NCBI GenBank assembly: GCA_964641945.1
Contig: CAZXLQ010000001.1
Span: forward strand, 13,725-77,724
DNA: 64,000 nucleotides
From: an uncultured Clostridia bacterium
Lineage (GTDB): Bacteria; Acidobacteriota; Blastocatellia; UBA7656; JADIYM01
Reading direction: 5' to 3'
Shown here: one piece after another, positions 42,027 through 60,347 of the stretch
Position numbering within the stretch: position 1 is the first letter of the stretch
Layout: every line of letters begins with the position of its first letter
Notes under the pieces: model-generated
What the model was told of the DNA's origin: nothing
The model's input: the letters and a program-made list of their open reading frames with translations, nothing else
The model's database searches: none
Position numbers and translations under genes: made by a program

Positions 42027-42080
42027 GCGCCGCGTGCTAGCGTGCGGCGAGCACTCTGAAAACCAAATAGAGGTAGTGGT

Positions 42081-42548
42081 TCGCAAGGGCTGCCCAGCGC
42101 CCTGAAGCTGATGACAGGTTGGGCCCCGACACGCCTCGCCCGCCGGGGGATATCGCAATGGCTGCCCAGCGCCCTAAAGCTGGTGACCGGGTGATGATAC
42201 GGCGACGCGTGCGACCTCCCTCGGGTCGCAAGGGCTGCCCAGCGCCCTGAAGCTGGTGACGGCCGCACGCTTGCTCACCGACTGCTCGGCCACGAGTCGC
42301 AAAGGCTGCCCAGCGCCCTGAAGCTGGTGACCTCGCGCCGCAGGGTGGACGCGCGCCCGAGGCGGACATCGCAAGGGCTGCCCAGCGCCCTGAAGCTGGT
42401 GACGTGTACGTGTGCGCGAGATCGGTGTCGCGCAGCACGTCGCAAGGGCTGCCCAGCGCCCTGAAGCTGGTGACGGAGCGACCTTTTCCCCCCACGAGAT
42501 CCTCGACCGTGCATCGCAAGGGCTGCCCAGCGCCCTGAAGCTGGTGAC
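42081..42548. CRISPR. CRISPR-like array: 7 repeats of about 35-36 nt, 6 unique spacers of 36-39 nt
   Basis: repeat (G/A)TCGCAAGGGCTGCCCAGCGCCCTGAAGCTGGTGAC starting at 42081, 42153, 42226, 42297, 42369, 42440 and 42514; repeats 1 and 2 carry point variants; internal hairpin GGGCTG/CAGCGCCC; no cas genes in window. Confidence 0.8.
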
Positions 42549-42656
42549 GTGTTGGCATGGCGACCAAAGACAACGGCCTCGACGGCTTTCGCCACCGAGG
42601 CCGCTGCCTCCACAACATGAAGGAGGTCACGTCAACCGCAGGACAAGACCGTACCA

Positions 42657-43148
42657 TCAGCGCACCGTCGCAGCAACCCACACGATTGCCGTCACGACGA
42701 CTCCGACAGCAAACCAGAGCGCCGGGTGCTCAAACCATGACCTCTCCGCTGCCGCTCGCGTCGCCTCTCTCGCCTCCACCAAAGCTGCCGTCAGCTCCGC
42801 CTGACGTGCCGTCCACAGGTCATCCCGAAGACGCAGACGTTCCTCACAGGCGCTGATCCTTGATCGCTCCATTTCCACACGCACGTCGCAGGTCTCGCGA
42901 TCTCGCTCGGTGGTGCGATCGAGCAGGTACCGCATGCGCTCATACTCTTGCTGGATCTGGAGCAGATCCGCCGCACCGATGAGCAGCCCGTCACGAGGAG
43001 CAGGCGCTCCACGACGCAGAGGAAGGATCTCCTCCGGCTCAGGAAGCCGCAGCTCTGTTGCTTCCGGAGTCTCCTGAGCCGCCGACCGGGCAGGGAGCAT
43101 CAGAAGCAAACTGAGGAGGAAGGATAGAGCGCGGGCCATGAGTAGCAT
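42657..43148 (-). CDS. secreted/membrane coiled-coil protein
   Basis: N-terminal signal-like LSFLLSLLLMLPARSAAQ, C-terminal TM ALWFAVGVVVTAIVWV. Confidence 0.5.
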   Translation of the reverse strand: MLLMARALSFLLSLLLMLPARSAAQETPEATELRLPEPEEILPLRRGAPAPRDGLLIGAADLLQIQQEYERMRYLLDRTTERDRETCDVRVEMERSRISACEERLRLRDDLWTARQAELTAALVEAREATRAAAERSWFEHPALWFAVGVVVTAIVWVAATVR

Positions 43149-43158
43149 CGTAGCGCAA

Positions 43159-43401
43159 TCAATCGAAGTGGAACGCGCGGTGCTCGGCGAGCTGCGTCTC
43201 GTGGTCGAAGCGATGCGAGTAGACTTCCATCACACGCTGCATCTCACCAGGACTGGCCGCTATCTTGCGGACATCATCACCGGGCATGACGTGGACTGGA
43301 TAGTCCTCATGGTCGAACGTGTCGCACACGATCAGCGTGTGCGTCGCGCCCCTCGCCTTGCCTTCGGTGAGCCACGTCCGGATCTCGTCCTTCGTCGTCA
43401 T
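43159..43401 (-). CDS. hypothetical protein (start at MTTKDEI)
   Basis: TGTCAGACAG site directly upstream of ATG. Confidence 0.45.
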   Translation of the reverse strand: MTTKDEIRTWLTEGKARGATHTLIVCDTFDHEDYPVHVMPGDDVRKIAASPGEMQRVMEVYSHRFDHETQLAEHRAFHFD

Positions 43402-43407
43402 GGAAAC

Positions 43408-43416
43408 TGTCTGACA
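43408..43416. promoter_or_regulatory. TGTCTGACA operator-like site abutting ATG 43401
   Basis: TTGACT lies 24 nt further upstream (minus sense). Confidence 0.45.
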
Positions 43417-43441
43417 GGTTCTTTCGACGGAGTCAACCAAG

Positions 43442-43512
43442 TTCGGGGAGAGGGACTCGAACCCCCGTGAACTGGACCAAGGCCAGTCGTCCTGCCGCTA
43501 GACGATCCCCGA
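43442..43512 (-). tRNA. tRNA (anticodon loop CCTTGGT; TTG, Gln-type, C33)
   Basis: acceptor 7/7, T-loop TTCGAGT. Confidence 0.6.
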
Positions 43513-43513
43513 G

Positions 43514-43584
43514 CGCAGCGTGCGGGAGTCGAACCCGCCTGGCGTCGGTGAAAGCGACGCGGCCTCCCGGAAGCCCAACGCTGC
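43514..43584 (-). tRNA. tRNA-Glu(TTC)
   Basis: acceptor 7/7 (43515-21 vs 43578-84), T-loop TTCGACT, loop CTTTCAC. Confidence 0.75.
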
Positions 43585-43597
43585 ATCATCCAGATAG

Positions 43598-43670
43598 AGC
43601 CCCGAGCCGGTCTCGAACCGGCGGCCCCCTGCTTACAAGGCAGGTGCTCTGCCAACTGAGCTATCGGGGC
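43598..43670 (-). tRNA. tRNA-Thr(TGT)
   Basis: acceptor 7/7, loop CTTGTAA. Confidence 0.75.
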
Positions 43671-43851
43671 GGTTTCGTTCTTCACGCCATCGGTCAAGAA
43701 TCGCAGCCGTCTCACGCGTCGCAACGAAAAGCCGCACGGAGAGGCACGACTCGCACTGCCTGTCGCCAGAGTACGACGGCAGGACCCCTTCGTGCCCAGT
43801 GCGACCACACTTCTCGCAGATCGAGTAGAACTCGTGCCAGTAGTCGATCAT
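43633..43851 (-). CDS. doubtful small Zn-binding ORF whose 3' end overlaps tRNA-Thr
   Basis: CEKCGRTGH..CESC; overlap with tRNA 43598-43670. Confidence 0.25.
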   Translation of the reverse strand: MIDYWHEFYSICEKCGRTGHEGVLPSYSGDRQCESCLSVRLFVATRETAAILDRWREERNRPDSSVGRAPAL

Positions 43852-43867
43852 TCGACGAACTGTATCA

Positions 43868-43940
43868 TGCCGGTTGCGGGAGTCGAACCCGCCTGCTCCG
43901 CTTTACGAGTGCGGTGCTCTCCCACGAGAGCGTAACCGGC
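43868..43940 (-). tRNA. tRNA-Thr(CGT)
   Basis: acceptor 7/7, loop CTCGTAA. Confidence 0.7.
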
Positions 43941-43977
43941 GTATACTGCATGCGATGAGGCCCACCGCGACAGAACG

Positions 43978-44166
43978 ATGCGAATGATCTCAACGGCGAG
44001 AACGAGTCTGCTCGACGCTCAGTACGCGCTCGGAGCGATCTCCCGCTACTCACCCGAGGCCGCCGCGCTCCACAAGATCATCGTCGAGACCCGGAAGACC
44101 GTCGAGCGAATGCGTGTCGTCGACGCGCAAACCATCTCGCCCAACAAGAGGCGGAAGCGGCGCTGA
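43978..44166 (+). CDS. doubtful small ORF between tRNAs
   Basis: 62 aa. Confidence 0.3.
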   Translation: MRMISTARTSLLDAQYALGAISRYSPEAAALHKIIVETRKTVERMRVVDAQTISPNKRRKRR

Positions 44167-44239
44167 CGTCCCGTACGCGAATCGAACGCGTGTTTCCAGG
44201 TTGAGGGCCTGGCGACTTGAGCCGCTGGTCGAACGGGAC
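44166..44239 (-). tRNA. tRNA (anticodon loop CCCTCAA; CTC, Glu-type, C33)
   Basis: acceptor 7/7, T-loop TTCGATT. Confidence 0.55.
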
Positions 44240-44560
44240 ATCACGGAGACCGGAAGGCTCGAACTCCAACGCCTTGCGACGTCGCACCGGGTAGCGGCCG
44301 GGCCCAGCACCACCTGCTGGTTCAGTCTCCAAGCGGAAGAAGGAGGTCACGATCCCCAACGCCTTGCGACGCCGCTCCGCTTTCGAGGCGGACCCGGTCC
44401 CCGACCGGTTCTTCTTCCAAGCGGAGAGCGGAGGTCCTGACCCTCAGCGCCTTGCGACGCCGCAACCGCTTCCAACGGTACCCGAGCCCCGCTCGGTTCG
44501 CTCTCCATGGAGAAGTGGGGGCACGATCCCCAGCGCCGAAACGCCCATCGGTGTTCAAAG
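44240..44560. repeat. three or four degenerate ~90-nt tandem units with palindromic core CTTGCGACG(Y)CGC and tRNA-fragment-like GGTCACGATCCCC
   Basis: cores at about 44266, 44356, 44444; partial copy at about 44520. Confidence 0.6.
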
Positions 44561-44942
44561 CCGTGTCGAGCCCAGCTCGATTCCTTCTCCAGTCGGTGAT
44601 CCGTTCGAGTCCGGCGTCTACACACCTGAGTTACCAGCCCAGGACGCCTCAGCAGAAGTCGATTGTTCGGTCACGATCCTCCGCCGCCTGGCCGGGCGAC
44701 TTCAACGGACCGGAGGGACTCTACCCCCAAGGCGCAAAGCACTGGTTCATGATTTTCGCGCCAACCGCATTGACCAAGGGCCAGGAACCTCGCCGACCGG
44801 CGCCCAAGGTCTCACGTACCGTATCTTCCTCTGCTGTACGACACACCCGATTCCCCGAAGCGCTGCCTTGCCCGCCGTGCCAGCGTGCGTCTTCAGCCAT
44901 GGGTAGAAACCGGACTCGAACGGATCACTTACATTCTCACCT

Positions 44943-45455
44943 TCACGCAGCCTTGCCGAAGTAGGGCCGCCATGCCTCAGGGACAGCCCTGAGATCGAAC
45001 TTCTTGGGAACCACCGGAAGCCAGACAGGCTTCTTCGGCTGCCTGAGCAGCTTCATCTTCGCCTCCTCCGGCGTCCGGTTGCCCTTCTTCGAGTTGCACG
45101 GATAGCAAGCCGCGACGATGTTGTCCCATTCCGTACGACCACCTCGCGAGCGAGGGATGACGTGGTCGTAGTTCAGCTCGTGCGCCTCGAAGTCACCGCC
45201 GCAGTATTGACACTGGTGCCCGTCGCGGAGCAGCACGTTCGCGCGAGAGAACTTGATCGACACCTTCTTTCCGCGAGCCTTCCGCACCATACGGATGATC
45301 GACGGCATGTGCATCGCGACCGACGGGGAGCGGATCACCTCCGACGTCGCCTCCACGACCTCTGCCTTTTCGTCGTAGAGCAGGCAGATCGCCCGCTCCC
45401 AGGAGACGATCCGACTTGGTTGGTAGAACGAATCGAGGACGAGTACGCGCTGCAT
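44943..45455 (-). CDS. HNH endonuclease
   Basis: DGHQCQYCGG..YDHVIPRSRGG..WDNIVAACYPCNSKKGN. Confidence 0.75.
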   Translation of the reverse strand: MQRVLVLDSFYQPSRIVSWERAICLLYDEKAEVVEATSEVIRSPSVAMHMPSIIRMVRKARGKKVSIKFSRANVLLRDGHQCQYCGGDFEAHELNYDHVIPRSRGGRTEWDNIVAACYPCNSKKGNRTPEEAKMKLLRQPKKPVWLPVVPKKFDLRAVPEAWRPYFGKAA

Positions 45456-45472
45456 GATCTGGCTCCGTGATC

Positions 45473-45545
45473 TGCGGACCGTCGGAGTCGAACCGACACT
45501 GAGCGGTGTTTGAAGCCGCTGCCTCTGCCGTTGGGCTACGTCCGC
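45473..45545 (-). tRNA. tRNA (anticodon loop TTCAAAC; CAA on a short-variable-arm scaffold, identity unclear)
   Basis: T-loop TTCGACT, acceptor 6/7. Confidence 0.5.
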
Positions 45546-45559
45546 GTTGAGGTTGGTCG

Positions 45560-45587
45560 ATAGTAAGGTTCGTGTCTGACAAGTCAA
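45560..45587 (-). promoter_or_regulatory. promoter TTGACT-N16-TACTAT with TGTCAGACA in spacer, upstream of tRNA 45473-45545
   Basis: minus-sense cttcTTGACTtgtcagacacgaacctTACTATcgacc. Confidence 0.5.
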
Positions 45588-45594
45588 GAAGCGA

Positions 45595-45668
45595 TGCGCG
45601 AGGACGGATTTGAACCGACACTTGCTAGGTTCTTAGCCTAGTGCCTCTGCCAGTTGGGCTACCCGCGC
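45595..45668 (-). tRNA. tRNA (anticodon loop CTAAGAA; identity unclear)
   Basis: T-loop TTCAAAT, acceptor pairs with one G-U. Confidence 0.5.
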
Positions 45669-45670
45669 GT

Positions 45671-45744
45671 TGCCGACGAGTGGATTTGAACCACCACTGG
45701 GTACGGTCTGAACGTACTGCCTCTGCCAGTTGGGCTACATCGGC
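45671..45744 (-). tRNA. tRNA (anticodon loop TTCAGAC; CAG on a short-variable-arm scaffold)
   Basis: T-loop TTCAAAT, acceptor pairs with one G-U. Confidence 0.5.
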
Positions 45745-45750
45745 GTGGAG

Positions 45751-45824
45751 ATGCACGACCAGAGATCGAACTCTGCTGGGGCGACGTGTGAGATCGCTGC
45801 CGTCTCCAGACGGCTCGTCGTGCA
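45751..45824 (-). tRNA. tRNA-Val(CAC)
   Basis: acceptor 7/7; imperfect T-stem; loop CTCACAC. Confidence 0.6.
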
Positions 45825-45924
45825 GGTTCAGATCGTCATCCGTGTCGCGCACACCTCGGCCGTGGCCACGGCCGCCGGACTCCTAGCCGGGACTGATGAC
45901 GATCCGGTTCGGTCCGCGGACCGA

Positions 45925-45996
45925 TCGGGCTGGCCGGACTCGAACCGGCAACTACTCCGCCCCGAACGGAGTGGGGTACCTTTCCCCTACAGCCCG
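45925..45996 (-). tRNA. tRNA-Pro(CGG)
   Basis: acceptor 7/7, T-loop TTCGAGT, loop TTCGGGG. Confidence 0.75.
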
Positions 45997-46077
45997 GAAG
46001 TCTGGGTGGCCGGTTCCGCCCCGGCGGCCTCGTGCTCCCCGAGCACGCGCTCTGCTTGCTGAGCTACACCCAGATGA

Positions 46078-46148
46078 TCGCAGCGGCGAGAATCGAACTC
46101 GCTCTGCCCGCGTATGAAACGGGTCCTCGGCCATCGAGGATCGCTGCG
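46078..46148 (-). tRNA. tRNA-Met(CAT) (Met/fMet/Ile2 not distinguished)
   Basis: acceptor 7/7, loop TTCATAC. Confidence 0.7.
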
Positions 46149-46231
46149 TTGGTTTGCGGCCCCCGGAGTCGCGCCGGGTTGGCAAGGGGTATGAGCCCAA
46201 GCTGGTATCTCCACCTGCGCCGCACAAGACA

Positions 46232-46303
46232 CGCTGTCGGGTTGACTCGAACAACCATCTCCGACTTCGGACGTCGGGATCCTATCCTTTGGACTACGAC
46301 AGC
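46232..46303 (-). tRNA. tRNA-Arg(CCG)
   Basis: acceptor 7/7, loop GTCCGAA. Confidence 0.75.
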
Positions 46304-46779
46304 TTTTTCCACGAAAGCGGGACAAGTAGCCCGTGGTCCATCTCCCAGTGGCAGTTGCGACACAGGATCGCCACGTTGTCCTCCGCGTTGACCTCTGAGA
46401 GCGAAGCGCTCTCGCTGAACCCCGAGATTGGCTTGATATGGCAGAACTCGACATGCTTCGAGTACCCACAGTTCTCACACACTCTTGCACGGTGAGCGTT
46501 TGATTCGCGGCAGTGAGTCCGTACCAGCGAGTGTCGCCACGGCCCATCCTTGGAACGCTGAAGTTCTCCCAACGTGCGCTCACGCGACTTGTCCACAGAG
46601 ATGCACGCGATGCACTTCTGCCTCCTGGACCGCTCTACCTGCACTCCGCAAGCGCTACATGCCGGACGCGGGTTTCGCTTTCTCTTGACGGTCTCCCTGT
46701 TTGTCATGCGCGCGGAGCAGGTGCGAGAGCAAAACCTTGGGTTCTCCGTCTCCTGGCCGCACGTGGCACACTTGACCAT
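46294..46779 (-). CDS. HNH endonuclease
   Basis: C-terminal CHIKPISGF..NVAILCRNCHWEMDHG; N-terminal Cys clusters; start at MVKCATCG. Confidence 0.75.
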   Translation of the reverse strand: MVKCATCGQETENPRFCSRTCSARMTNRETVKRKRNPRPACSACGVQVERSRRQKCIACISVDKSRERTLGELQRSKDGPWRHSLVRTHCRESNAHRARVCENCGYSKHVEFCHIKPISGFSESASLSEVNAEDNVAILCRNCHWEMDHGLLVPLSWKKLS

Positions 46780-46789
46780 GACGCGTGGC

Positions 46790-46817
46790 AATCTAGCCAC
46801 CCACTGTCTGACAGTCA
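46790..46817 (-). promoter_or_regulatory. promoter TTGACT-N16-TAGATT with TGTCAGACAG in spacer, 10 nt before HNH ATG 46779
   Basis: minus-sense gcgTTGACTgtcagacagtggtggcTAGATTgccacgcgtcATG. Confidence 0.55.
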
Positions 46818-46892
46818 ACGCCCACGGAGGGACTTGAACCCCCACGAGACCCAGGTTCGTAGCCTGGCGCTCTATCCATTGAGCTACGCGGG
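46818..46892 (-). tRNA. tRNA-Arg(ACG)
   Basis: loop CTACGAA, acceptor pairs with one G-U. Confidence 0.7.
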
Positions 46893-46899
46893 CAGAAGA

Positions 46900-46974
46900 C
46901 CGCGACCGGAGGGAGTCGAACCCACATCGATCCATTACGGTTCACTCGTTTAGAAAACGAGACCGGTACGGTCG
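46900..46974 (-). tRNA. tRNA (anticodon undetermined)
   Basis: canonical T-arm, acceptor 7/7 (46901-07 vs 46968-74); internal arms ambiguous. Confidence 0.5.
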
Positions 46975-47481
46975 CCCAGATGTAGCCAGGCCATGGGCCT
47001 TCGCCCACTTTCTGACAGCGTTATCCGACACGCCGAACATCTCACCGAGCGCGACCCACGAGTGCGTCTCCAACAACTTCTCAAGCTCCTCCTTCTCTGG
47101 TCGCTTCGCGATTCGCGAAGCCATAGCGGAGCATTCGTACGAGCAAAAACGCGCGTTGAACGTCTGGCGTCCGCATCGCTCGCACGTGGACGATTCGCGA
47201 GGCCCGTAGCGCTCCATATTGTGCGCGGCCACATGCTGCCTGTGATCCATGACCTCCAAGTTCTCTGGACGGTTGTCGTCCTTCAGCTCGTTCTTGTGAT
47301 GGACGCTTTCGGATGGCAGTACCCAGCGGCCGATCGTGATCGATGCGACGTGACGATGGACGTAAACCTTCCCCTGACTGTTTGCGAGCGGGTGAGATTT
47401 ATCCAGAAAGTACATGTACCCGAGCGTCTTGTCCTTCTTCGGCGGCTTTGCGCAAGGATCCCAACTGTACTCTTGGTCCAT
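46942..47481 (-). CDS. HNH endonuclease (HNH_3-like) with C-terminal HTH
   Basis: HHKNELKDDNRPENLEVMDHRQH; 3' end overlaps tRNA 46900-46974. Confidence 0.75.
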   Translation of the reverse strand: MDQEYSWDPCAKPPKKDKTLGYMYFLDKSHPLANSQGKVYVHRHVASITIGRWVLPSESVHHKNELKDDNRPENLEVMDHRQHVAAHNMERYGPRESSTCERCGRQTFNARFCSYECSAMASRIAKRPEKEELEKLLETHSWVALGEMFGVSDNAVRKWAKAHGLATSGRPYRSRFLNE

Positions 47482-47515
47482 GTTTTTGGCCTAGAATGTT
47501 GAGGTTCGAATGTCA

Positions 47516-47583
47516 AGGACCGACCGCGAATCGAACGCGGCTTCGACGGGTTGCAATCGTCGGTCTTCCCAGAAGACCGGTCC
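47516..47583 (-). tRNA. tRNA-Cys(GCA), tentative, compact D-arm
   Basis: T-loop TTCGATT, loop TTGCAAC, acceptor 6/7. Confidence 0.45.
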
Positions 47584-47588
47584 AGAAA

Positions 47589-47659
47589 AGCGGGCGGCGA
47601 GAATCGAACTCGCTTGGCTGGGTTGGAAGCCCAGAGCCTAACCAGTCGGCCACGCCCGC
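47589..47659 (-). tRNA. tRNA-Gly(TCC)
   Basis: acceptor 7/7, loop CTTCCAA. Confidence 0.75.
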
Positions 47660-47822
47660 ATAGCCGGCGCAGGAGAAAGGCGGCTCCCTACGCCCACACC
47701 GTCATCGACGGCTCGGTCCTGCGACCGAGCGCTCCGCCCAACGCAGAGCCCCCGACCGGCATCGCACCGGCACCATCGTCCATACCAAGGACGCGTTCTT
47801 CTTCTTGAACTTCGGGGGCACA

Positions 47823-47895
47823 TGGACCTGGAGGGCTCCGCCCCCTCCGCCTCCTGCTTGCAAGGCAGGCGCTCTCCTGAATGAGCTACAGGCCC
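47823..47895 (-). tRNA. tRNA-Ala(TGC) with G3:U70, non-canonical T-loop GGCGGAG
   Basis: anticodon arm cctgc/TTGCAAG/gcagg, D-arm gctc..gagc, acceptor GGGCCUG with G3-U70. Confidence 0.55.
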
Positions 47896-47898
47896 AGA

Positions 47899-47970
47899 TC
47901 GTCGCGCCGGGTTCCGCCCCCGGGGCCTCCTGCGTGTCGAGCAGGCCTCTTCTGACTGAGCTACGCGACG
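47899..47970 (-). tRNA. tRNA-Val(GAC)-like, non-canonical T-loop GGCGGAA, C33
   Basis: acceptor 7/7 (47900-06 vs 47964-70). Confidence 0.5.
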
Positions 47971-47974
47971 AGAA

Positions 47975-48050
47975 CTCCCGCGGTGGGAATCGAACCCACG
48001 CCATCGTGCCCACGGCACCTTGTTGGGAAACGCGCTTCCCTAGCGACCAG
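47975..48050 (-). tRNA. tRNA-like element: canonical 3' half, 5' end unresolved
   Basis: T-arm gtggg/AATCGAA/cccac; only 7/7 acceptor partner lies 210 nt away at 48185-48191. Confidence 0.3.
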
Positions 48051-48191
48051 GGATCTCCTTGCCATTCGGTGCATCCGCAACCCGCGGTGCCTACCCACAC
48101 CCCGAGGACAGCCCCAAGTAGCAGGCGGCCCGATGCCTTTTACGGTGATCGGCTCCGTTTTTCCGACGTTCTGCCTCTGAACTACGCGGGA

Positions 48192-48264
48192 TGGAGCAGT
48201 CGGGGATCGAACCCGCCACAGCCCGCGTATCAGACGGGCCAGGACAACCAGTCACTTCCGCTCC
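48192..48264 (-). tRNA. tRNA-Ile(GAT)
   Basis: loop CTGATAC; acceptor pairs with one G-U. Confidence 0.7.
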
Positions 48265-48268
48265 GAAG

Positions 48269-48343
48269 CATCCCCAGCGCGACTCGAACACGCGACCTGA
48301 TCTTTAGGAAAGATCTGCTCTGATCCAACTGAGCTATGGGGAC
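48269..48343 (-). tRNA. tRNA-Arg(CCT)
   Basis: loop TTCCTAA; D-arm gctc/gagc. Confidence 0.7.
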
Positions 48344-48426
48344 ACGATCTGGTAGACGGGACCTGCCCCCGCTTGACCTGGAGCCACAATCCAGGGCCTC
48401 GACTACTTCGGCCTCTACCAGCATGA

Positions 48427-48497
48427 GAGCGGATGGGGAGAATCGAACTCCCAGAGTCGCGCTGGCAACGCGACCGCCTCACCATCGGCAACATCCG
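48427..48497 (-). tRNA. tRNA-Gly(GCC)
   Basis: acceptor 7/7, loop TTGCCAG. Confidence 0.75.
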
Positions 48498-48501
48498 CAA
48501 C

Positions 48502-48574
48502 ATGGACCTCAGCGGGGTCGAACCGCTGACCTCCTCGATGCCATCGAGGCGCTCTCCCAACTGAGCTAGAGGCC
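48502..48574 (-). tRNA. tRNA-Ala(GGC) with G3:U70
   Basis: loop ATGGCAT; acceptor GGGCCUC with G3-U70. Confidence 0.7.
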
Positions 48575-48638
48575 CGAAGAAGATCCGACGAACCGAAACT
48601 GCTCGGTGGTTGGGGATTGTTGGTGCGCCGGACCTTCA

Positions 48639-48710
48639 TCTGGGTGACTGGAATCGAACCAGCCGAGACGAGCACCCAAAGCTCGTGCCGCACCTTGCGG
48701 CTCCACCCAG
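48639..48710 (-). tRNA. tRNA-Pro(TGG)
   Basis: acceptor 7/7, loop TTTGGGT. Confidence 0.7.
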
Positions 48711-48714
48711 GGAC

Positions 48715-48788
48715 CGCCTCGTAGGGGGATTGAACCCCTCTCGACACCGCTCGACAAGCGGCCGGCGTCCCCAGACGCCTCACGAGGC
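48715..48788 (-). tRNA. tRNA-Asp(GTC)
   Basis: acceptor 7/7, T-loop TTCAATC, loop TTGTCGA. Confidence 0.7.
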
Positions 48789-48816
48789 ATTGGCGCGGCG
48801 AATCGTCGACGCGCGA

Positions 48817-48889
48817 TGGGACGTCTCGGAGTCGAACCGAGTTCTGTGGATCTTCAGGCCACCGCAATGACCGCACTTGCTCACGTCCC
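48817..48889 (-). tRNA. tRNA-Phe(GAA)
   Basis: acceptor 7/7, loop CTGAAGA. Confidence 0.7.
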
Positions 48890-48931
48890 AAGCGGGAAAC
48901 GCAGAGGCGCAAGCGTCTCCACGTGACCCCA

Positions 48932-49003
48932 CAGGCCGTGCAGGAGTCGAACCATGCTCGACGACGGATTTGGAGTCCGTCCGGCTGCCTCAGCCTACGG
49001 CCT
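48932..49003 (-). tRNA. tRNA-Trp(CCA)
   Basis: acceptor 7/7, loop CTCCAAA, imperfect T-stem. Confidence 0.65.
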
Positions 49004-49007
49004 GTAG

Positions 49008-49081
49008 CTCCAGGGGTCGGTGACGATCCGACAAGCACTCCGGTAACAGCGGAGCGGCTAGCCAACTTTGCCTTCCCTGGA
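49008..49081 (-). tRNA. tRNA-Asn(GTT), atypical T-loop ATCGTCA
   Basis: acceptor 7/7, loop CTGTTAC. Confidence 0.6.
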
Positions 49082-49139
49082 ATAGCGGACGCCCTCACGG
49101 ACGCCCGCGCTCTACTTCTTCAGTTTTCAGAGAGCCGAG

Positions 49140-49210
49140 TTCCGGCGCCAGGAATCGAACCTAGATTTTCGCGTTCAGAGCGCGACGGCCTGCCGTTAGC
49201 CGAAACCGGA
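49140..49210 (-). tRNA. tRNA-Gln(CTG)
   Basis: loop CTCTGAA, acceptor 6/7. Confidence 0.65.
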
Positions 49211-49281
49211 TGGGCTGCCAGGGAATCGAACCCTGCACGGCCTGAGTAAGAATCAGGTCCCTCCCTTGAGGGGTGCAGCCC
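49211..49281 (-). tRNA. tRNA-Lys(CTT)
   Basis: acceptor 7/7, loop TTCTTAC. Confidence 0.7.
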
Positions 49282-49660
49282 GCTGCTTCGATCTGGTCTT
49301 TCTGCTTTGCGCGGCGCTCGCCGCCCTGCATTCGTCACACCTGCGTCCGTGCCGGTACATCGCGAACGTTCCGTGCTTGCGAAGTTCGCGACCGAGATCC
49401 TCCTTGACCGTCTTCTCTGTGTGACATCGAGAGCAAAGAAGCTGACAGAGCTTCAGCTCCTTCATGAAGCGAGACATGCCGCAGCCGTACATTCGACTGA
49501 ATGGCATGGTCTTTTTCTTTCGATCGATATGATCCACCTCCAGACCATCAACACTGTCACAGCGAGCGCACTTGCCGCCCAGAACAGCAATCGCCAACTC
49601 GCGCCGCTCGTGGTAGCGACGCTTCATGTAGACCCTCATGTGTGCCGCGTTACTCGACAT
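49253..49660 (-). CDS. HNH endonuclease
   Basis: LEVDHIDRKK..CQLLCSRCH; 3' end overlaps tRNA-Lys. Confidence 0.75.
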   Translation of the reverse strand: MSSNAAHMRVYMKRRYHERRELAIAVLGGKCARCDSVDGLEVDHIDRKKKTMPFSRMYGCGMSRFMKELKLCQLLCSRCHTEKTVKEDLGRELRKHGTFAMYRHGRRCDECRAASAAQSRKTRSKQRAAPLKGGT

Positions 49661-49686
49661 CGTCCTTGGGAGCGAGAGGAGTCGAA

Positions 49687-49758
49687 CCTCCGCAGTCCGG
49701 AGTAAAGGTCCGGTGTCCAGCCATCAGACGCCGCTCCCGCGTTCACGCGGCAGCGCGT
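49687..49758 (-). tRNA. tRNA-Lys(TTT)-like (C33)
   Basis: acceptor 7/7, loop CCTTTAC. Confidence 0.55.
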
Positions 49759-49940
49759 TTCTCCTCTCTCTTCTCGCCGACACCGCGGACCGTGCGGCGA
49801 TCCGCGTCGGACATGACCCGCCAGAGCCCGTCCAGCTCGTCCTGAAGACGATCGACCTCGTCCTCTCCACCACGCAGATGCGCCTGCCTGAGGCGCTCCC
49901 GCGCCCGCTTGTACCTCTCGACGATGTGATGGGTGCTCAT
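49743..49940 (-). CDS. doubtful small ORF between tRNAs
   Basis: 65 aa. Confidence 0.3.
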   Translation of the reverse strand: MSTHHIVERYKRARERLRQAHLRGGEDEVDRLQDELDGLWRVMSDADRRTVRGVGEKREEKRAAA

Positions 49941-49960
49941 GATCTTGTTCCTGTTGCTGT

Positions 49961-50041
49961 TGGAGCCGCTTGGAATCGAACCAAGTCTCCCCGGAGGGAG
50001 CGGATTTACAGTCCGCCTGCGACACCAGCCGCATCGACTCC
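49961..50041 (-). tRNA. tRNA-Tyr(GTA), class II with variable-arm hairpin
   Basis: loop CTGTAAA, variable stem ctccc/gggag, acceptor pairs with one G-U. Confidence 0.7.
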
Positions 50042-50249
50042 AGAAACGACGAAGGCCGCCTGGTTTCCCTGGCGGCCTCCGTAGGTTCTGGGACTTTAGG
50101 TCCTCTTTCTACGATGCCGCCTCCGCTTCCCGGATGCTGGGCTTCTGGTTGCGGTCGACCTGGTGCCACGTCGGGCGCACCTCGGTCGACCCGCCCAGAA
50201 GGCGGGTACCGAGATACATCGTCGCGAACCTGGATGACAACATGGTCCC

Positions 50250-51700
50250 CTACTCATGCCAGATGTCCGACAGGCCGTCAAGCGAAAAAGTGATCGTTCT
50301 TTCGACCCACACTTCCCTACGAATCGTCGGGGCTCTCGATCGGCGCTCGTCGGGTCGGACCCTCCAGTTTGCCATCCGGACCACATTCTTCTTGTAGGAC
50401 TTCGGGCACTGGGGTCATCCCTCTTCGGGCCGCTCAGGTCGCTGCACAACCGACCCGAGCGAGCACCACGCTCGTACCGAGCGCCTTCACATTCTGAGCC
50501 GCGTTCACGTCACGGTCCACCACGTATCCGCACGGGCAGCGGTGCTCACGGACGCTCAGGTCCTTGGGCACCACGATTCCGCACCGGCTACAGCGCTGGC
50601 TCGTGCCGCGAGCATCGACCGCCACACACCACTTGCCGGCACTCTCAGCCTTGCAAGCTACGGCATGCACCAGCGTGCTCCACGCAGCATCCGTCACCGA
50701 CTTGGCCAGCACACCAGCCGCCAAGCCCTTCACGTTCAAGTCTTCGACTGCGATGACGTCATACTTCGCCACCAACACGCACGCGAGCTTGCGTGCGAAG
50801 TCGAGCCGTTGCTGCCGCACGTGGGCATGCGCCTTGGCCACGAGCCGCTGAGCGACCCTGGCCCCCTGCGTGGACTTCTGCCCGCGGCGCCGTCGCCGCG
50901 CCAGGCGCTGTTGGCGCATGGCCAACTGGTCTTCGGCCTTTCGGAAGAACCGCGGCGCGGCGATGGTCTCGCTGTCGCTCGTCGCCACCAGCGACGTAAG
51001 CCCCACGTCGATTCCGACCACGCTCTGAGCGGCCTCGGCTGCCGGCACCTTTGGTGGTGCGGCGCCCAGGTCGCAACTGAAGCACACGAACCAGCGGCCG
51101 GTCGCTTCGCGGCGGACGGTAACGTTGCGGATGGCACCCGTGAGCGACCGGTACTCGTGGAACCGCACCAGGCCGAGCTTGGGGATACGGACGTGCGCCG
51201 AGCGCGTGCCGCGCTGAGCGGCGACCGGCGCAACTCGGCCGACCTCGAAGCTGTCGTAGCGAGAAAGCGACCGGAAGCGAGGGTAGCCCGGCTTCTGGCC
51301 CGCCTTCACGCGGCGGAAGAACGCCTGGAAGGCGCGATCGCAGCGACGGAGCGCCGAACGTTCGACCTCGACGGGGATGCTGGCGATGATCTCGTCGGAA
51401 GACCGGAGCGAGGTCAGCTCGGCGGTTTGGCTGTTGTAGGTCACGATCGGCGCGGGCTTGCGCTCGACGCCGCGATCGGTGGCCGCCTGCCGCTGGCGCT
51501 TCTCGTGCTCCCACGCGTCTCGCCGGTGCTGGAGCGCGGCGTTGTAGAGCTGCTGGCAGGTCCGCAGCCAAGAACCGAGCGTGGTCTCCTGGGCGACGGT
51601 CGGATGTAGCGGGTAGCGGAAGGTGCGGAGCAAGAGGGGTATGGTGTGAAGGGCAAAGTCAAATGTCAAATGCCTCCACTACCCGGACTCGCACAGGCGA
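50250..51700 (-). mobile_element. IS200/IS605-family TnpB-only element (IS1341-like remnant; ends not defined)
   Basis: tnpB with no tnpA; expected omegaRNA region downstream of tnpB 3' end at about 50250-50480. Confidence 0.45.
50434..51669 (-). CDS. tnpB: TnpB (OrfB) RuvC-like transposon-associated nuclease
   Basis: N-terminal RTFRYPLHPT..QLYNAAL; C-terminal zinc finger CSRCG..CPCGYVVDRDVNAAQN. Confidence 0.85.
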   Translation of the reverse strand: MTFDFALHTIPLLLRTFRYPLHPTVAQETTLGSWLRTCQQLYNAALQHRRDAWEHEKRQRQAATDRGVERKPAPIVTYNSQTAELTSLRSSDEIIASIPVEVERSALRRCDRAFQAFFRRVKAGQKPGYPRFRSLSRYDSFEVGRVAPVAAQRGTRSAHVRIPKLGLVRFHEYRSLTGAIRNVTVRREATGRWFVCFSCDLGAAPPKVPAAEAAQSVVGIDVGLTSLVATSDSETIAAPRFFRKAEDQLAMRQQRLARRRRRGQKSTQGARVAQRLVAKAHAHVRQQRLDFARKLACVLVAKYDVIAVEDLNVKGLAAGVLAKSVTDAAWSTLVHAVACKAESAGKWCVAVDARGTSQRCSRCGIVVPKDLSVREHRCPCGYVVDRDVNAAQNVKALGTSVVLARVGCAAT

Positions 51701-58951: not shown

Positions 58952-60346
58952 TCATTTCCGAACGCGGGTGGTCCCAAGCATCGCACCACGATCTTCCGGA
59001 TCGACATCCGGAGGCCACTTGGTGCGCGAATCGTATCTCGCACGGTACAAATCGGTCTCGAAAAGGTTTGCGCCGAAAAGATTCGATCCGTATAGAGCGG
59101 CACCAGAGAGGTTGGCGTGCGAGAGGTCGGCGTGCGAGAGGTCGGCGTGCGAGAGGTCGGCGTGGGCCATCCTTGCTCTCGAAAGGTCCGCGCCAGACAG
59201 GTTCGTGTTGCTCAGTTGACGGCCGATCAGGTCTGCGCCGGCCAGGTCTCGTCCCGCCAGTGATGCGCGAGAAAGCAGAATCCCGTTTGGCTCGCCGCCC
59301 TTTCCTCTATCGACGAACTCCACGACCATCGACCGGATCGCCTCGACCACAGCTTTGACTTCGTGCCCTCCCAATGGCGGCTCGTTGTCCTGTCCCGCTT
59401 GCAGCACGTAGGTGGCGAACTGAGCGTCCCCGATGTTCGAGTTGGCTTGCCCGAAGATCTGCAAGAAGCTCCCGCCCCAACGATTCTCATTTGACGGCTT
59501 CCACTCCATCGTGACGTACGGGACGCCGTCCGGGTCTCGTAGCGAGTAGATCACGCTATCGCCGTGCTCCACCGCCTCGCAGTATGTTCCGACGCAGTGG
59601 CTGAGGGCTTTCCCCTCAGGCTCCAGCTCCCGCCTGCCTCGCAGCTCTTGCACGGTCCATCCGGTCGGGAACCGGTAGACGACCTTGCCCTGGCGCACCT
59701 TCTTCGAGTAGCGGAAGGTCTTGATCGCTTCGAGGACTTCCGCGAGCGACTTCTTCATCAGATCGATGCGATTCAGCTTCGCCCACTGAGCGATGGCATT
59801 GCCTGACCGGCGGAGCCTTCCAAGAGCCTCCTCGTAGTCACGGTACTCGTCCAGCGGTGCAAGGTTCTCCTCGATTGCCTTCTCCACAGCCGTGATGGTG
59901 TGCTTCGAGAGCTTGCTCAGCTCACGAGCCACCCACGGAAAAATCCCGTCTGCCTCGTGCGGCTCACGCATGGCACCGCCAGCGAACGTCGGCAACGCGA
60001 TCGTCTCAAGCAGCAAACGAAGAAGATGCCGATGGCCCGCAGGACCAACCGGCCAATAATCGTGCTCTACGAGGCGTACGTATCCGAGGTTTGAGATGCC
60101 CAACCATTGAAAACTTGGTCGCGGAAGACCTGTGACGAGAGAGCCGCCCGAGTAGAGATCAAGAAGGTCTCGGCGACCTTTCCCATGGGCCTCGTAATAC
60201 GCGTCCTCGACCTCTCGCCACGACTCGTCGATTCCGATGGTTGGGAAGATCACGCTGAGCGTGTCGAGCACGACCCATGGTTGCTTCTCGATGTACATCT
60301 TGGTGATGTACTGAAGCCGGTCGATCGCTGCGTTCTTCGTCAGCAC
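58952..60346 (-). CDS. PcfJ-like domain protein with C-terminal pentapeptide repeats (paralog of 116-1780)
   Basis: WTVQELRGRRELEPEGKALSHCVGTYCEAVEHGDSVIYSLRD; ADLSHADLSHADLSHANLSGAAL repeats; GTG start 1 nt after upstream stop with GGGGG RBS. Confidence 0.6.
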   Translation of the reverse strand: MLTKNAAIDRLQYITKMYIEKQPWVVLDTLSVIFPTIGIDESWREVEDAYYEAHGKGRRDLLDLYSGGSLVTGLPRPSFQWLGISNLGYVRLVEHDYWPVGPAGHRHLLRLLLETIALPTFAGGAMREPHEADGIFPWVARELSKLSKHTITAVEKAIEENLAPLDEYRDYEEALGRLRRSGNAIAQWAKLNRIDLMKKSLAEVLEAIKTFRYSKKVRQGKVVYRFPTGWTVQELRGRRELEPEGKALSHCVGTYCEAVEHGDSVIYSLRDPDGVPYVTMEWKPSNENRWGGSFLQIFGQANSNIGDAQFATYVLQAGQDNEPPLGGHEVKAVVEAIRSMVVEFVDRGKGGEPNGILLSRASLAGRDLAGADLIGRQLSNTNLSGADLSRARMAHADLSHADLSHADLSHANLSGAALYGSNLFGANLFETDLYRARYDSRTKWPPDVDPEDRGAMLGTTRVRK

Positions 60347-60347
60347 G

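Follow-up and report, generated by a model that had tools for sequence, protein, structure and literature searches.

The 64,000-nucleotide stretch of contig CAZXLQ010000001.1 analysed here (positions 13,725 to 77,724; hereafter the window) contains about 39 tRNA genes packed into 6.6 kb of the minus strand, with four HNH endonuclease genes between them. This agrees with the core of the original prediction, made from the letters of the DNA, which had described a dense one-strand tRNA array on a mobile element with interspersed HNH genes and non-standard members. Six of the tRNAs carry A18 together with G55 at the elbow, where the D-loop and T-loop meet, and this combination is the main subject of what follows.

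The only relative of the element that was found is a 171-kb viral contig in IMG/VR, Ga0265297_10000272 (locus L138, together with the fragments L108, L131 and L274); L275, a short contig from a metagenome, is close to L138. The tRNAs of L138 follow the same order as those of the window, running from Tyr, Lys, Gln, Asn and Trp through to Leu-CAG, Leu-AAG, Leu-CAA and the first HNH gene, and then Ser, Thr, Glu and Gln, which allows the two arrays to be compared slot by slot.

Composition of the tRNA array

Run at its default settings, ARAGORN detects 27 tRNAs, every one of them encoded on the minus strand within 43441–50041 of the window. A search of 43000–50600 with the Rfam tRNA model (RF00005; permissive filters, gathering score 29 bits) adds four at or above 29 bits, at 47823–47895 (50.9 bits), 46001–46073 (44.7 bits), 46901–46975 (35.9 bits) and 47899–47970 (33.4 bits), which brings the default tools combined to 31. 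Seven more (Asp-GTC, Cys-GCA, His-GTG, Val-CAC, Ser-GCT, Ser-GGA and a tRNA with a CAT anticodon) were recovered through relaxed ARAGORN settings, a cloverleaf parser that uses base pairing only and orthologues in L138, and the total of about 39 includes one doubtful Ser-TGA-like gene (44508–44590). The earlier figure of about 32 genes, close to what the default tools give, was an undercount. RF00005 covers 24 regions at 32.1–69.1 bits, and others rest on ARAGORN or on the Sec model of the same clan.

A motif-free cloverleaf scan, again based on pairing only, found 24 strict cloverleaves on the minus strand of 43400–50100, compared with none on the plus strand, none on either strand of the other 57 kb and at most one per shuffle in 30 shuffles. 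With its roughly 39 genes at high density on one strand, the array exceeds the 20 that mark a phage or mobile-element tRNA gene cluster. The possible degenerate tRNA suspected at 46154–46224 is the CAT-anticodon gene called by relaxed ARAGORN, in the slot of L138 9394–9465. It had also been stated that no Leu, Ser or His class II tRNA besides Tyr was to be seen, and that these identities were either carried by the aberrant genes or missed by eye. Each half of that choice applies in part: leucine is carried by short-arm genes, whereas a Ser block (44244–44590) and a His gene (48348–48421) are present and had been overlooked. Because ARAGORN at default settings misses every tRNA with a GGCRG-type T-loop here, published phage tRNA counts and lists of 'missing' isoacceptors are probably biased.

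The anticodons of the array cover all 20 amino acids and, with standard wobble, read 99.6% of the 6013 codons of 12 confident window genes (G+C at third codon positions, GC3, = 0.74), leaving only ATA, TTA and GTA without a reader. Acceptor-stem and discriminator elements agree with the anticodons, in the odd tRNAs as in the others. G3:U70 is present in both Ala tRNAs, among them the gene at 47823–47895 for which it had already been noted by eye, and C1:G72 with A73 in all three Pro tRNAs; position 73 is U in the tRNAs for Gly and Cys, G in those for Asp and Asn and in three of the Ser tRNAs, and A in the Leu (all three), Lys, Phe and Tyr tRNAs, and the Arg tRNAs have A20. None of the genes encodes CCA and many neighbours lie 0–8 nt apart, implying polycistronic precursors and dependence on a CCA-adding enzyme. 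The array is probably transcribed into long precursors, whose maturation would fall to the host's RNase P, CCA-adding and 3′ processing enzymes; no tRNA-processing or repair genes were recognised near the array.

The A18/G55 elbow

Six tRNAs of the window (Pro-GGG, Ala-TGC, Val-GAC, His-GTG, Thr-GGT and the CAT tRNA at 46154) have A18, in an AG D-loop, together with G55, and the other 33 have U55 together with GG, so that the rule holds for 6/6 and 33/33. Four of the six also have G54 and G58, and measured against the conserved elbow (G18, G19, U54, U55, C56, A58) these six alone fall outside it. Two non-canonical T-loops had been noticed originally, at 47823–47895 and 47899–47970; both belong to real tRNAs (50.9 and 33.4 bits), and the number was too low, as four tRNAs have GGCRG T-loops.

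The same architecture recurs well beyond the window. The pattern TAGCTCA-N(33-43)-GGGGCGGARCC finds 46 sites in IMG/VR, 42 of which form cloverleaves of many identities, with 6–7 of 7 acceptor pairs and 4–5 of 5 T-stem pairs (5/5 in 41). A census of the elbow in 779 distinct strict cloverleaves, parsed from all collected loci, shows U55 accompanied by GG at positions 18–19 in 610 of 633 cases and G55 accompanied by AG in 74–85 of 88, the remainder being AGG, for which the reading is ambiguous. Within loci that were not selected on their T-loop the corresponding counts are 473/19 versus 1/21 (Fisher p = 2.5e-25, with relatedness ignored; 16 loci, many identities). The partners at 54:58 that accompany G55 are G:G (GGCRG), U:A (TGCRA), A:U (AGCGT) and C:C (CGCAC), with C56 kept, and the contact between G19 and C56 is presumably kept with it. 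At least 18 amino-acid identities are represented, and in some arrays the variant elbow is in the majority (8 of 13 tRNAs in L136, 7 of 14 in L128).

Comparison with L138 shows that tRNAs with the same anticodon can differ in elbow type between the two arrays. The His tRNA of L138 has a canonical T-loop and G-1:C73, in contrast to GGCAGGT and A73 in the window, and Thr-CGT, which has a canonical elbow in the window, has a CGCACGT T-loop with an AG D-loop (A18) in L138 (10911–10982). In Ala-TGC and Thr-GGT, three fully compensated anticodon-stem pairs separate each window gene from its L138 counterpart, with no difference in the unusual T arms. Asn and Ser-CGA of the window show another swap, A54...U58, in which U55 and GG are retained; it is also seen in mycobacteriophage Alice. 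Two BLAST probes for the GGCGGAA T-loop in cultured phages returned canonical T-loops only, which is not evidence of absence because BLAST cannot search for a loop motif.

These covariations point to a coordinated swap, in which the contact between G18 and Ψ55 would be replaced by one between A18 and G55, and the reverse-Hoogsteen pair U54–A58 by other pairs. According to a review of the T-loop (Roovers, Droogmans and Grosjean, PMC7912444), the conserved positions are U54, which is A54 in eukaryotic initiators, U55, C56 and A58; G54 and G55 are absent from its text and likewise from a review of non-canonical tRNAs (PMC7609411). Full-text searches of the open-access literature found no description of tRNAs with A18/G55 or G54/G58. 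The known exceptions, namely the eukaryotic initiator tRNA with its A54–A58 pair (PMC7912444) and the mitochondrial and pyrrolysine tRNAs that lack G18G19 or T-Ψ-C (PMC7609411), resemble the present case in that function is kept off the consensus. They differ in that the changes described here are coordinated (G55 with A18; G:G, A:U or C:C at 54:58), retain C56, affect elongators of at least 18 identities and occur in phages and in some bacteria. The comparative evidence for the A18/G55 elbow and its 54:58 alternatives is strong, and this form of tRNA architecture appears not to have been described before.

A more far-reaching proposal, which we put forward tentatively and at somewhat less than even chances, is that the A18–G55 elbow is an undescribed natural form of the tRNA corner, found in some bacterial tRNAs and, across most identities, in the working elongators of many phages. 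In phages, selection may favour it for doing away with the sites at U54, U55, A58 and G18 that are recognised by host modification enzymes, nucleases and toxins, while still fitting RNase P, EF-Tu and the ribosome.

The bacterial examples complicate this picture. When the pattern was searched in one genome per species, 127 sites were parsed among the matches listed, at least 87 of which are good cloverleaves. Most of the matches listed belong to one family in Streptomyces, Actinomadura, Actinoplanes and Nocardiopsis, with C1:G72, G73, an AG D-loop and the GGCGGAA loop, present as 1–4 tandem copies at one conserved syntenic chromosomal locus (L154–L273; for example L165 2621–2935). The family adjoins the upstream end of a 785-aa open reading frame (ORF) (for example L165 2950–5304) that has no match in Pfam, NCBIfam or the PDB. 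Its anticodon loops vary freely between species and some have 6 nt, which counts against decoding as the general role of this elbow, since it may here sit on non-decoding tRNAs. Pro-GGG tRNAs of candidate-phyla-radiation genomes, again among the matches listed, also carry the GGCGGAA loop. The C1:G72 tRNAs with this loop were compared with tRNAProX of Streptomyces, which is defined by A33, A34, A15:A48, G21 and C1:G72 and has ProRSx as its partner (PMC10404621); this identification was rejected, as the Streptomyces and window tRNAs have U33 or C33 and not A33 A34.

The variant-elbow tRNAs, or the short-arm leucine tRNAs described below, might accordingly be something other than ordinary decoders, acting as non-ribosomal donors, nuclease decoys or regulators, or being charged with an amino acid other than the one their anticodon specifies. 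We regard this as improbable and keep it in view mainly because of the Streptomyces-type family, which combines the same T-loop with hypervariable anticodon loops and a fixed chromosomal locus. The non-proteinogenic tRNA-Gly of Staphylococcus, which also lacks G18G19, is a further point in its favour. So are irregular tRNAs that are charged yet unused in translation (Mukai 2017, PMC5389517). In the phage arrays, however, the variant elbows sit on tRNAs with matching identity elements (G3:U70 in Ala, C1:G72 in Pro), several are the sole readers of their codons in the window (His, Thr ACC/ACU, Val GUC/GUU), and all 70 well-formed short-arm leucine-type tRNAs have leucine anticodons and A73.

Leucine tRNAs and other irregular members

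The three consecutive genes at 45473–45744, which had been read as leucine-type anticodons (CAA, a doubtful AAG, and CAG) on scaffolds with short variable arms, are real genes (42.1–54.5 bits) and members of a recurrent family. With 5 nt each (CCAGT, CAAGT and TCAGT), their variable regions fall short of the stem-bearing arm of at least 10 nt that characterises class II. All three retain the core of leucine identity (A73, A14, A15:U48, G18G19 and A20a), with U48 as the last nucleotide of the variable region and a D arm of the form GCC-C-AACUGGCAG-A-GGC.

A 21-mer of the D arm common to two of the three, GTAGCCCAACTGGCAGAGGCA, has exact matches in 86 IMG/VR contigs, and the 70 matches that form good cloverleaves have leucine anticodons without exception (TAA 22, TAG 20, CAA 19, CAG 7, GAG 2). 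A73 is present in all 70, and the variable region has 5 nt in 65 and 6 nt in 5, nearly always ending in T (U48); the remaining stems of the family covary freely while the D arm is nearly invariant. By BLAST, this type is also present, under the annotation tRNA-Leu, in cultured phages of Erwinia (phiEa21-4-like), Streptomyces, Mycobacterium, Enterococcus, Rhizobium and Synechococcus, and a tRNA-Leu(TAG) with a short variable loop was remarked upon in a mycobacterial tRNA cluster that contains HNH genes (Behra et al. 2019, PMC6582537). In L138 the same three slots hold class II leucine tRNAs with the same anticodons in the same order; these are 83–86 nt long with a variable hairpin of the type GUCC-GAAA-GGAC (15-nt arms), compared with 73–74 nt in the window.

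The leucyl-tRNA synthetase (LeuRS) of E. coli requires A73, A15:U48, G18G19 and A20a and can dispense with the long arm and the anticodon (Giege & Eriani 2023, PMC9976931), and tRNA-Leu variants without anticodon and variable arms are still charged by it (PMC9976931). Because all of the listed LeuRS elements are kept, we conclude from sequence comparison that the trio are leucine tRNAs of a widespread and under-noticed phage family, which LeuRS would be expected to charge. In this they resemble the tRNA-Leu of animal mitochondria and the engineered minimal tRNA-Leu of E. coli (PMC9976931), where identity is likewise conveyed by A73 and the D-loop and core and not by the long arm or the anticodon; the window type differs in being natural, in occurring in elements that infect bacteria and in having a near-invariant D arm across at least 86 viral contigs. 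Bacterial Schlafen nucleases were considered as a cause of the loss of the variable arm and set aside, since the relevant paper reports cleavage of the anticodon arm and not a dependence on the variable arm.

Variable arms also differ elsewhere in the two arrays. The Asn and Gln-TTG arms have 16 nt in L138 as opposed to 4–5 nt in the window, and variable arms seem to be readily gained and lost in phage arrays. Long, class-II-like 16-nt arms on Asn or Gln tRNAs were observed at L138 7308–7390 and 11139–11224 and at L277 638–719 (Klebsiella phage KPP-1).

Three of the serine tRNAs (Ser-GCT, Ser-CGA and Ser-GGA) form 8 + 4 perfect pairs, with an 8-bp acceptor and a 4-bp T stem, whereas a 7/5 drawing leaves a mismatch at 49:65. 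They have a variable-arm hairpin (GCGUC-GCAA-GGCGU), G73, serine anticodons and D stems of 5–6 bp. Phage clusters with 8/4 tRNA-Ser and with 8/4 tRNA-His carrying A73 have been described (Mukai et al. 2017, NAR, PMC5389517), and the likeness is close: a phage-like element whose cluster holds both 8/4 Ser tRNAs with a long arm and G73 and an A73 His that can be drawn as 8/4. The window His, which can be drawn as 7/5 or 8/4, differs in having C1:G72 and a G at position -1 in the DNA, and the paper describes neither T-loop or elbow changes (the term 'T-loop' is absent from its text) nor short-arm leucine tRNAs.

C at position 33, noted earlier in four tRNAs, is present in Gln-TTG, Glu-CTC, Val-GAC and Lys-TTT and also in Pro-GGG, making five. 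It is shared with Lys-TTT and Val-GAC of L138 and with Val-GAC of mycobacteriophage Alice. Phage tRNAs with changes in the anticodon loop have been proposed to escape anticodon nucleases (PMC10264068).

The CAT-anticodon tRNA at 46154–46224 has three G:C pairs closing its anticodon stem, as in initiators, but its U1:A72 is paired, where the L138 counterpart has a U1–U72 mismatch. A Met elongator, an initiator-like tRNA and an Ile2 tRNA are the candidates for its identity.

That the aberrant members (short-arm Leu, GGCRG T-loop, C33) are decaying pseudogenes or chance hairpins within a real array is very improbable and is largely refuted by the comparison with relatives. It would account for the GGCRG tRNAs being missed by default ARAGORN and for a few neighbours that look damaged, such as the Arg-TCT-like gene without a D arm and the Ser-TGA-like gene. 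Against it, all the members in question score over the Rfam threshold, including those for which a null score had been named as the outcome to look for (42.1, 54.5 and 50.7 bits for the leucine trio; 50.9 and 33.4 bits for the GGCGGA pair; all above 29), and their stems are perfect and their identity elements intact. The odd T arms are the same in L138 in spite of compensatory changes elsewhere, G55 is coupled to A18, and unrelated viral contigs show the same architectures with covarying stems, 86 of them for Leu and more than 40 for the T-loop.

Table 1. tRNA, HNH and tRNA-like genes of the array, listed in the direction of the minus strand
Feature	Positions	Strand	Characteristics and support
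tRNA-Tyr(GTA)	49961..50041	-	class II, A73; ARAGORN default; Rfam clan hit 49.5 bits; 7/5 parse
tRNA-Lys(TTT)	49667..49738	-	C33, anticodon loop CCTTTAC; ARAGORN default; Rfam 45.9 bits; L138 orthologue also C33
HNH endonuclease 4, 135 aa	49253..49660	-	phrog_4234 4e-29; Pfam HNH below cut-off; last 29 nt overlap 5′ end of tRNA-Lys(CTT)
tRNA-Lys(CTT)	49211..49281	-	ARAGORN default; perfect cloverleaf
tRNA-Gln(CTG)	49140..49210	-	ARAGORN default; Rfam 48.7 bits; 0-nt spacer to tRNA-Lys(CTT)
tRNA-Asn(GTT)	49008..49081	-	ARAGORN default; T-loop ATCGTCA (A54...U58 swap)
tRNA-Trp(CCA), irregular	48931..49004	-	ARAGORN; 8-bp acceptor, 6-bp anticodon stem, bulged T stem; top Rfam model tRNA-Sec 30.8 bits
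tRNA-Phe(GAA)	48817..48889	-	ARAGORN default; Rfam 45 bits
tRNA-Asp(GTC)	48715..48788	-	G73; relaxed ARAGORN; 7/4/5/5 cloverleaf; 84% identity to L138 Asp (default ARAGORN call)
tRNA-Pro(TGG)	48639..48710	-	C1:G72, A73; ARAGORN default
tRNA-Ala(GGC)	48503..48575	-	G3:U70; ARAGORN default; Rfam 57.8 bits
tRNA-Gly(GCC)	48428..48498	-	U73; ARAGORN default; Rfam 43.6 bits
tRNA-His(GTG)	48348..48421	-	motif-free scan, 7/7, 5/5, 5/5 pairs; T-loop GGCAGGT, A18, A73; missed by ARAGORN and Rfam
tRNA-Arg(CCT)	48269..48343	-	A20; ARAGORN default; Rfam 58 bits
tRNA-Ile(GAT)	48192..48264	-	ARAGORN
tRNA-shaped RNA, ~215 nt	47975..48189	-	minimum-free-energy fold; 79.5% identity to L138 8479-8690
tRNA-Val(GAC)	47899..47970	-	T-loop GGCGGAA, A18, C33; Rfam 33.4 bits; orthologue L138 8404-8476, 47.7 bits
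tRNA-Ala(TGC)	47823..47895	-	T-loop GGCGGAG, A18, G3:U70; Rfam 50.9 bits; orthologue L138 8695-8768
tRNA-Thr(GGT)	47747..47819	-	T-loop TGCGATG (G55), A18; ARAGORN default; Rfam 45.7 bits; orthologue L138 8772-8844
tRNA-Gly(TCC)	47589..47659	-	U73; ARAGORN default; Rfam 58.2 bits
tRNA-Cys(GCA)	47516..47583	-	U73, short D-loop; relaxed ARAGORN; L138 orthologue called by default ARAGORN
HNH endonuclease 3, 179 aa	46942..47481	-	Pfam HNH_3 6e-9; phrog_15471 1e-27; last 34 nt overlap next tRNA-like gene
tRNA-Arg(TCT)-like, possibly impaired	46901..46975	-	Rfam 35.9 bits; no D arm, 19-nt variable region; L138 orthologue 9166-9236 has D arm
tRNA-Arg(ACG)	46819..46893	-	A20; ARAGORN default; Rfam 60 bits
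HNH endonuclease 2, 161 aa	46294..46779	-	Pfam HNH_2 4e-5; phrog_8446 6e-4; last 10 nt overlap tRNA-Arg(CCG)
tRNA-Arg(CCG)	46232..46303	-	ARAGORN default; Rfam 53.9 bits
CAT-anticodon tRNA	46154..46224	-	relaxed ARAGORN; T-loop CGCGACT (G55), AG D-loop; slot of L138 9394-9465 (57.7 bits)
tRNA-Met(CAT)	46078..46148	-	ARAGORN default; Rfam 32.1 bits
tRNA-Pro(GGG)	46001..46073	-	T-loop GGCGGAA, A18, C33, C1:G72; Rfam 44.7 bits; perfect cloverleaf
tRNA-Pro(CGG)	45925..45996	-	ARAGORN default; Rfam 57.5 bits
tRNA-Val(CAC)	45752..45823	-	relaxed ARAGORN; 6-nt T-loop; L138 orthologue 9624-9694, 46.4 bits
tRNA-Leu(CAG)	45671..45744	-	5-nt variable region (class-I-like), A73; ARAGORN default; Rfam 50.7 bits; L138 slot: 84-nt class II Leu(CAG)
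tRNA-Leu(AAG)	45595..45668	-	5-nt variable region, A73; ARAGORN default; Rfam 54.5 bits
tRNA-Leu(CAA)	45473..45545	-	5-nt variable region, A73; ARAGORN default; Rfam 42.1 bits
HNH endonuclease 1, 170 aa	44943..45455	-	Pfam HNH_5 1e-18; phrog_16726 6e-39; 82%-identical copy in same L138 slot
tRNA-Ser(TGA)-like, doubtful	44508..44590	-	relaxed ARAGORN; 7/5, A73, weak anticodon stem
tRNA-Ser(GGA)	44422..44506	-	read from sequence; 8/4, long variable arm, G73, T-loop GTCAGGA
tRNA-Ser(CGA)	44334..44418	-	ARAGORN; 8/4, G73, T-loop ATCGTGA
tRNA-Ser(GCT)	44244..44330	-	relaxed ARAGORN; 8/4, G73; Rfam Sec model 24.1 bits
tRNA-Glu(CTC)	44167..44239	-	C33; ARAGORN default; Rfam 47.8 bits
tRNA-Thr(CGT)	43868..43940	-	canonical elbow; ARAGORN default; Rfam 42.7 bits
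tRNA-Thr(TGT)	43598..43670	-	ARAGORN default; Rfam 69.1 bits
tRNA-Glu(TTC)	43514..43584	-	ARAGORN default
tRNA-Gln(TTG)	43442..43512	-	C33, anticodon loop CCTTGGT; ARAGORN default; Rfam 51.5 bits

HNH genes, the element and its surroundings

The four HNH genes named originally are borne out by profile searches: three pass the Pfam cut-offs (HNH_5 1e-18, HNH_2 4e-5, HNH_3 6e-9) and all four match PHROG HNH families, each a different one (6e-39, 6e-4, 1e-27 and 4e-29 for HNH1 to HNH4). Three of the ORFs had been described as overlapping tRNA 3′ ends; on the coding strand they instead run 10, 34 and 29 nt into the 5′ end of the tRNA downstream. HNH1 is conserved in the same slot of L138 (82% protein identity), and HNH4 has an L138 homologue (57% identical) that lies between Trp and Phe, whereas in the window the gene separates the two Lys tRNAs. 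L138 lacks HNH2 and HNH3, and its Arg-ACG and Arg-CCG genes, which flank HNH2 in the window, are separated by 5 nt. The comparison of the two arrays thus shows, at the level of sequence, that the HNH genes are unrelated free-standing genes which insert in tRNA spacers and come and go between related arrays.

By analogy, the HNH enzymes may act as homing endonucleases and help to spread the array or parts of it. In the statement quoted in PMC8421152, T4 SegB promotes inheritance of the adjoining tRNA region, and SegB and the HNH genes of T5-like tRNA regions resemble the window genes in being free-standing endonuclease genes between tRNAs whose presence and position vary among relatives. SegB is, however, a GIY-YIG enzyme, whereas the four of the window are HNH enzymes of four different families, for which homing is a prediction. 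Just past the HNH1 stop, at 44900–44942 on the minus strand, there is a T-arm-like hairpin (ATCCG-TTCGAGT-CCGGT) with an acceptor-like 3′ strand and no 5′ half; it is absent from L138 and could be the remnant of a tRNA displaced by the insertion of HNH1.

The closest parallels in overall layout are the arrays of cluster C mycobacteriophages and the mycobacterial tRNA array units (Morgado & Vicente 2018, PMC5966550; Behra et al. 2019, PMC6582537), which likewise have 30–40 tRNAs on one strand with HNH genes between blocks. One mycobacterial cluster contains the short-variable-loop tRNA-Leu, and the Val-GAC of Alice has C33 as in the window. There is no sequence relation to the mycobacteriophage arrays beyond about 55 nt of tRNA-Ala, which was all that a megablast search of the array against cultured phages returned. 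Alice has U55 T-loops throughout, two of them with the A54...U58 swap, and, unlike the cluster C arrays and mycobacterial array units, the window array has no tmRNA according to ARAGORN.

The 64-kb window covers just a part of what would be an element of about 170 kb or more. Its G+C content is 60–65%, and besides a TnpB gene it carries genes for two helicases (SNF2 and UvrD), a tyrosine integrase, a Dam-type methylase, a ParB-like protein, a glycosyltransferase, a muramidase and two PcfJ/pentapeptide proteins; the same sequence is present in several runs of one study (SRR152378xx, SRR152377xx). The likely reading is that of a large phage from an uncultured source, although a plasmid-like element is still a serious candidate. 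That it is a plasmid, a phage-plasmid or an integrative element bearing a 'tRNA array unit', of the kind found on mycobacterial chromosomes and giant linear plasmids, is in our estimate unlikely. Such units are documented (PMC5966550, PMC12803027), and the ParB-like, integrase, helicase, Dam methylase and PcfJ-like genes would suit it, as would a window without a capsid, portal, terminase or tail gene. The sole relative is, however, a 171-kb contig filed in IMG/VR, the array has no nucleotide match among the plasmids of PLSDB, the muramidase matches PHROG endolysin families, and 64 kb leaves much of an element of this size outside the window.

Taken together, these observations make it probable that the tRNA cluster belongs to a large mobile element, uncultured and most likely a phage, and that the odd tRNAs, judged by the comparison with relatives, are working genes under selection and not products of decay. 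The tRNA set would allow the genes of the element to be translated largely independently of the host tRNA pool. If nucleases or toxins directed at host tRNAs deplete that pool, a self-sufficient set that differs at the anticodon loop, the elbow and the variable arm could keep phage translation going. More speculatively, and by analogy, the departures from cellular form (C33, the elbow, loss or gain of the variable arm) may reduce recognition by host nucleases, toxins and modification enzymes, an idea that extends the published proposal of anticodon-loop escape (PMC10264068) to the elbow and the variable arm.

Several points weigh against this account. No virion gene (capsid, portal, terminase, tail) was recognised in the 64-kb window, so that a plasmid or phage-plasmid is possible, and the UvrD and TnpB proteins have best matches of at most 39% identity. 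A few tRNAs look impaired: Trp is irregular with a bulged T stem, Val-CAC has a 6-nt T-loop, the Ser-TGA-like gene combines a 7/5 arrangement with a 3-bp anticodon stem and A73, and the Arg-TCT-like gene at 46901–46975 has no D arm and may be damaged because its 5′ half doubles as the C-terminus of HNH3. Leu-AAG would read CUC, the commonest leucine codon here, only with A34 deaminated, and A34 deamination in bacteria is usually restricted to tRNA-Arg. Finally, no nuclease acting on the elbow was found in a relevant host, which leaves the defence-evasion rationale as one by analogy.

Another account would treat the array as codon supply only, matched to the codon usage of the element as against a differing host pool, with the odd shapes arising by neutral drift along isosteric alternatives and playing no part in evading host defences. 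The fit of the set to GC3-rich usage, with only the three unread codons given above, agrees with it, as do the tRNAs of the same anticodon that flip elbow type over short distances and the Leu, Asn and Gln variable arms, whose differences between the window and L138 look like tolerated drift. We nonetheless consider it somewhat unlikely that supply and drift are the whole explanation, since G55/A18 is carried by over half of the tRNAs in some arrays (L136 and L128, above), suggesting a lineage-wide pressure and not sporadic drift, and since C33 is kept in the Lys-TTT and Val-GAC orthologues and in Val-GAC of mycobacteriophage Alice.

The array itself is ordinary, because dense phage tRNA arrays with homing endonucleases are already known. 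The short-arm leucine and 8/4 serine tRNAs, too, have at least in part been described before; it is the A18/G55 elbow that merits further work. The switch from G18–U55 to A18–G55, with its 54:58 alternatives, offers clean covariation for contacts held invariant in textbooks. Two related arrays that hold differing architectures in the same slots (class II or class-I-like Leu; His and Thr-CGT elbows; Asn and Gln arms) show that supposedly 'universal' features are exchangeable, and the elbow variants provide ready designs for orthogonal or nuclease-resistant tRNAs. Should the variants indeed help an element to survive tRNA-targeting defences, the escape idea would reach from the anticodon loop to the elbow and the variable arm.

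Between the tRNA-Ile and tRNA-Val(GAC) genes lies a tRNA-shaped RNA of about 215 nt, with a tRNA-Asn-like acceptor (U1:A72, G73) and D and T arms, in which a multi-helix insert of about 140 nt replaces the anticodon arm; its minimum-free-energy structure pairs the acceptor, D and T arms. Copies are present in L138 (8479–8690, plus strand) and L275 (about 1397–1640, minus strand), the latter a near-identical copy added by a metagenome scan. The window and L138 versions differ by 10 compensated pairs (acceptor pairs 3–5, one D-stem pair and several in insert helices), and the order of the RNA relative to Val-GAC is swapped between the two. No Rfam family matches it (the best, YrlA, scores 17.6 bits against a cut-off of 69); a 17-mer search of IMG/VR gave chance matches and the known relative only, and nhmmer found nothing in the collected loci. 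A tmRNA was rejected because G3:U70 is lacking (position 3:70 holds C:G in the window copy, U:A in that of L138) and ARAGORN makes no tmRNA call; a group I intron, a Y-RNA-like RNA and GOLLD were set aside for want of an Rfam family match. One possibility is that a tRNA fold serves here as a natural 'scaffold' that carries a structured RNA.

A 163-aa ORF (42657–43148, minus strand) stands at the 3′ end of the array, and its L138 homologue (61% identical, 6041–6406) at the 5′ end, upstream of tRNA-Tyr. Because the ORF sits at opposite ends of the two arrays, the array or its flanks have been rearranged. Just downstream of the tRNA cluster, at 42076–42555, is a CRISPR-like array of seven 36-nt repeats (ATCGCAAGGGCTGCCCAGCGCCCTGAAGCTGGTGAC) with unique spacers of 35–38 nt. 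The repeat is absent from IMG/VR and the spacers match none of the collected loci; no cas gene was recognised beside it, the only candidate being a TnpB/Cas12f-like ORF 8 kb away, beyond the tRNA cluster.

This last ORF (50434–51669, minus strand, 411 aa) lies directly upstream of tRNA-Tyr and is absent from L138. It has Pfam OrfB_IS605 and Cas12f1-like TNB domains and matches Cas12f and Cas12u models at 8e-57 and 2e-54 (PADLOC Cas12f 8e-57), and because it matches both these models and the TnpB domains, TnpB and Cas12f are indistinguishable here. Towards the ends of the window, one at each and on opposite strands, two paralogous ORFs of about 500 aa (116–1780, plus strand; 58952–60415, minus strand) combine a PcfJ-like domain with pentapeptide repeats.

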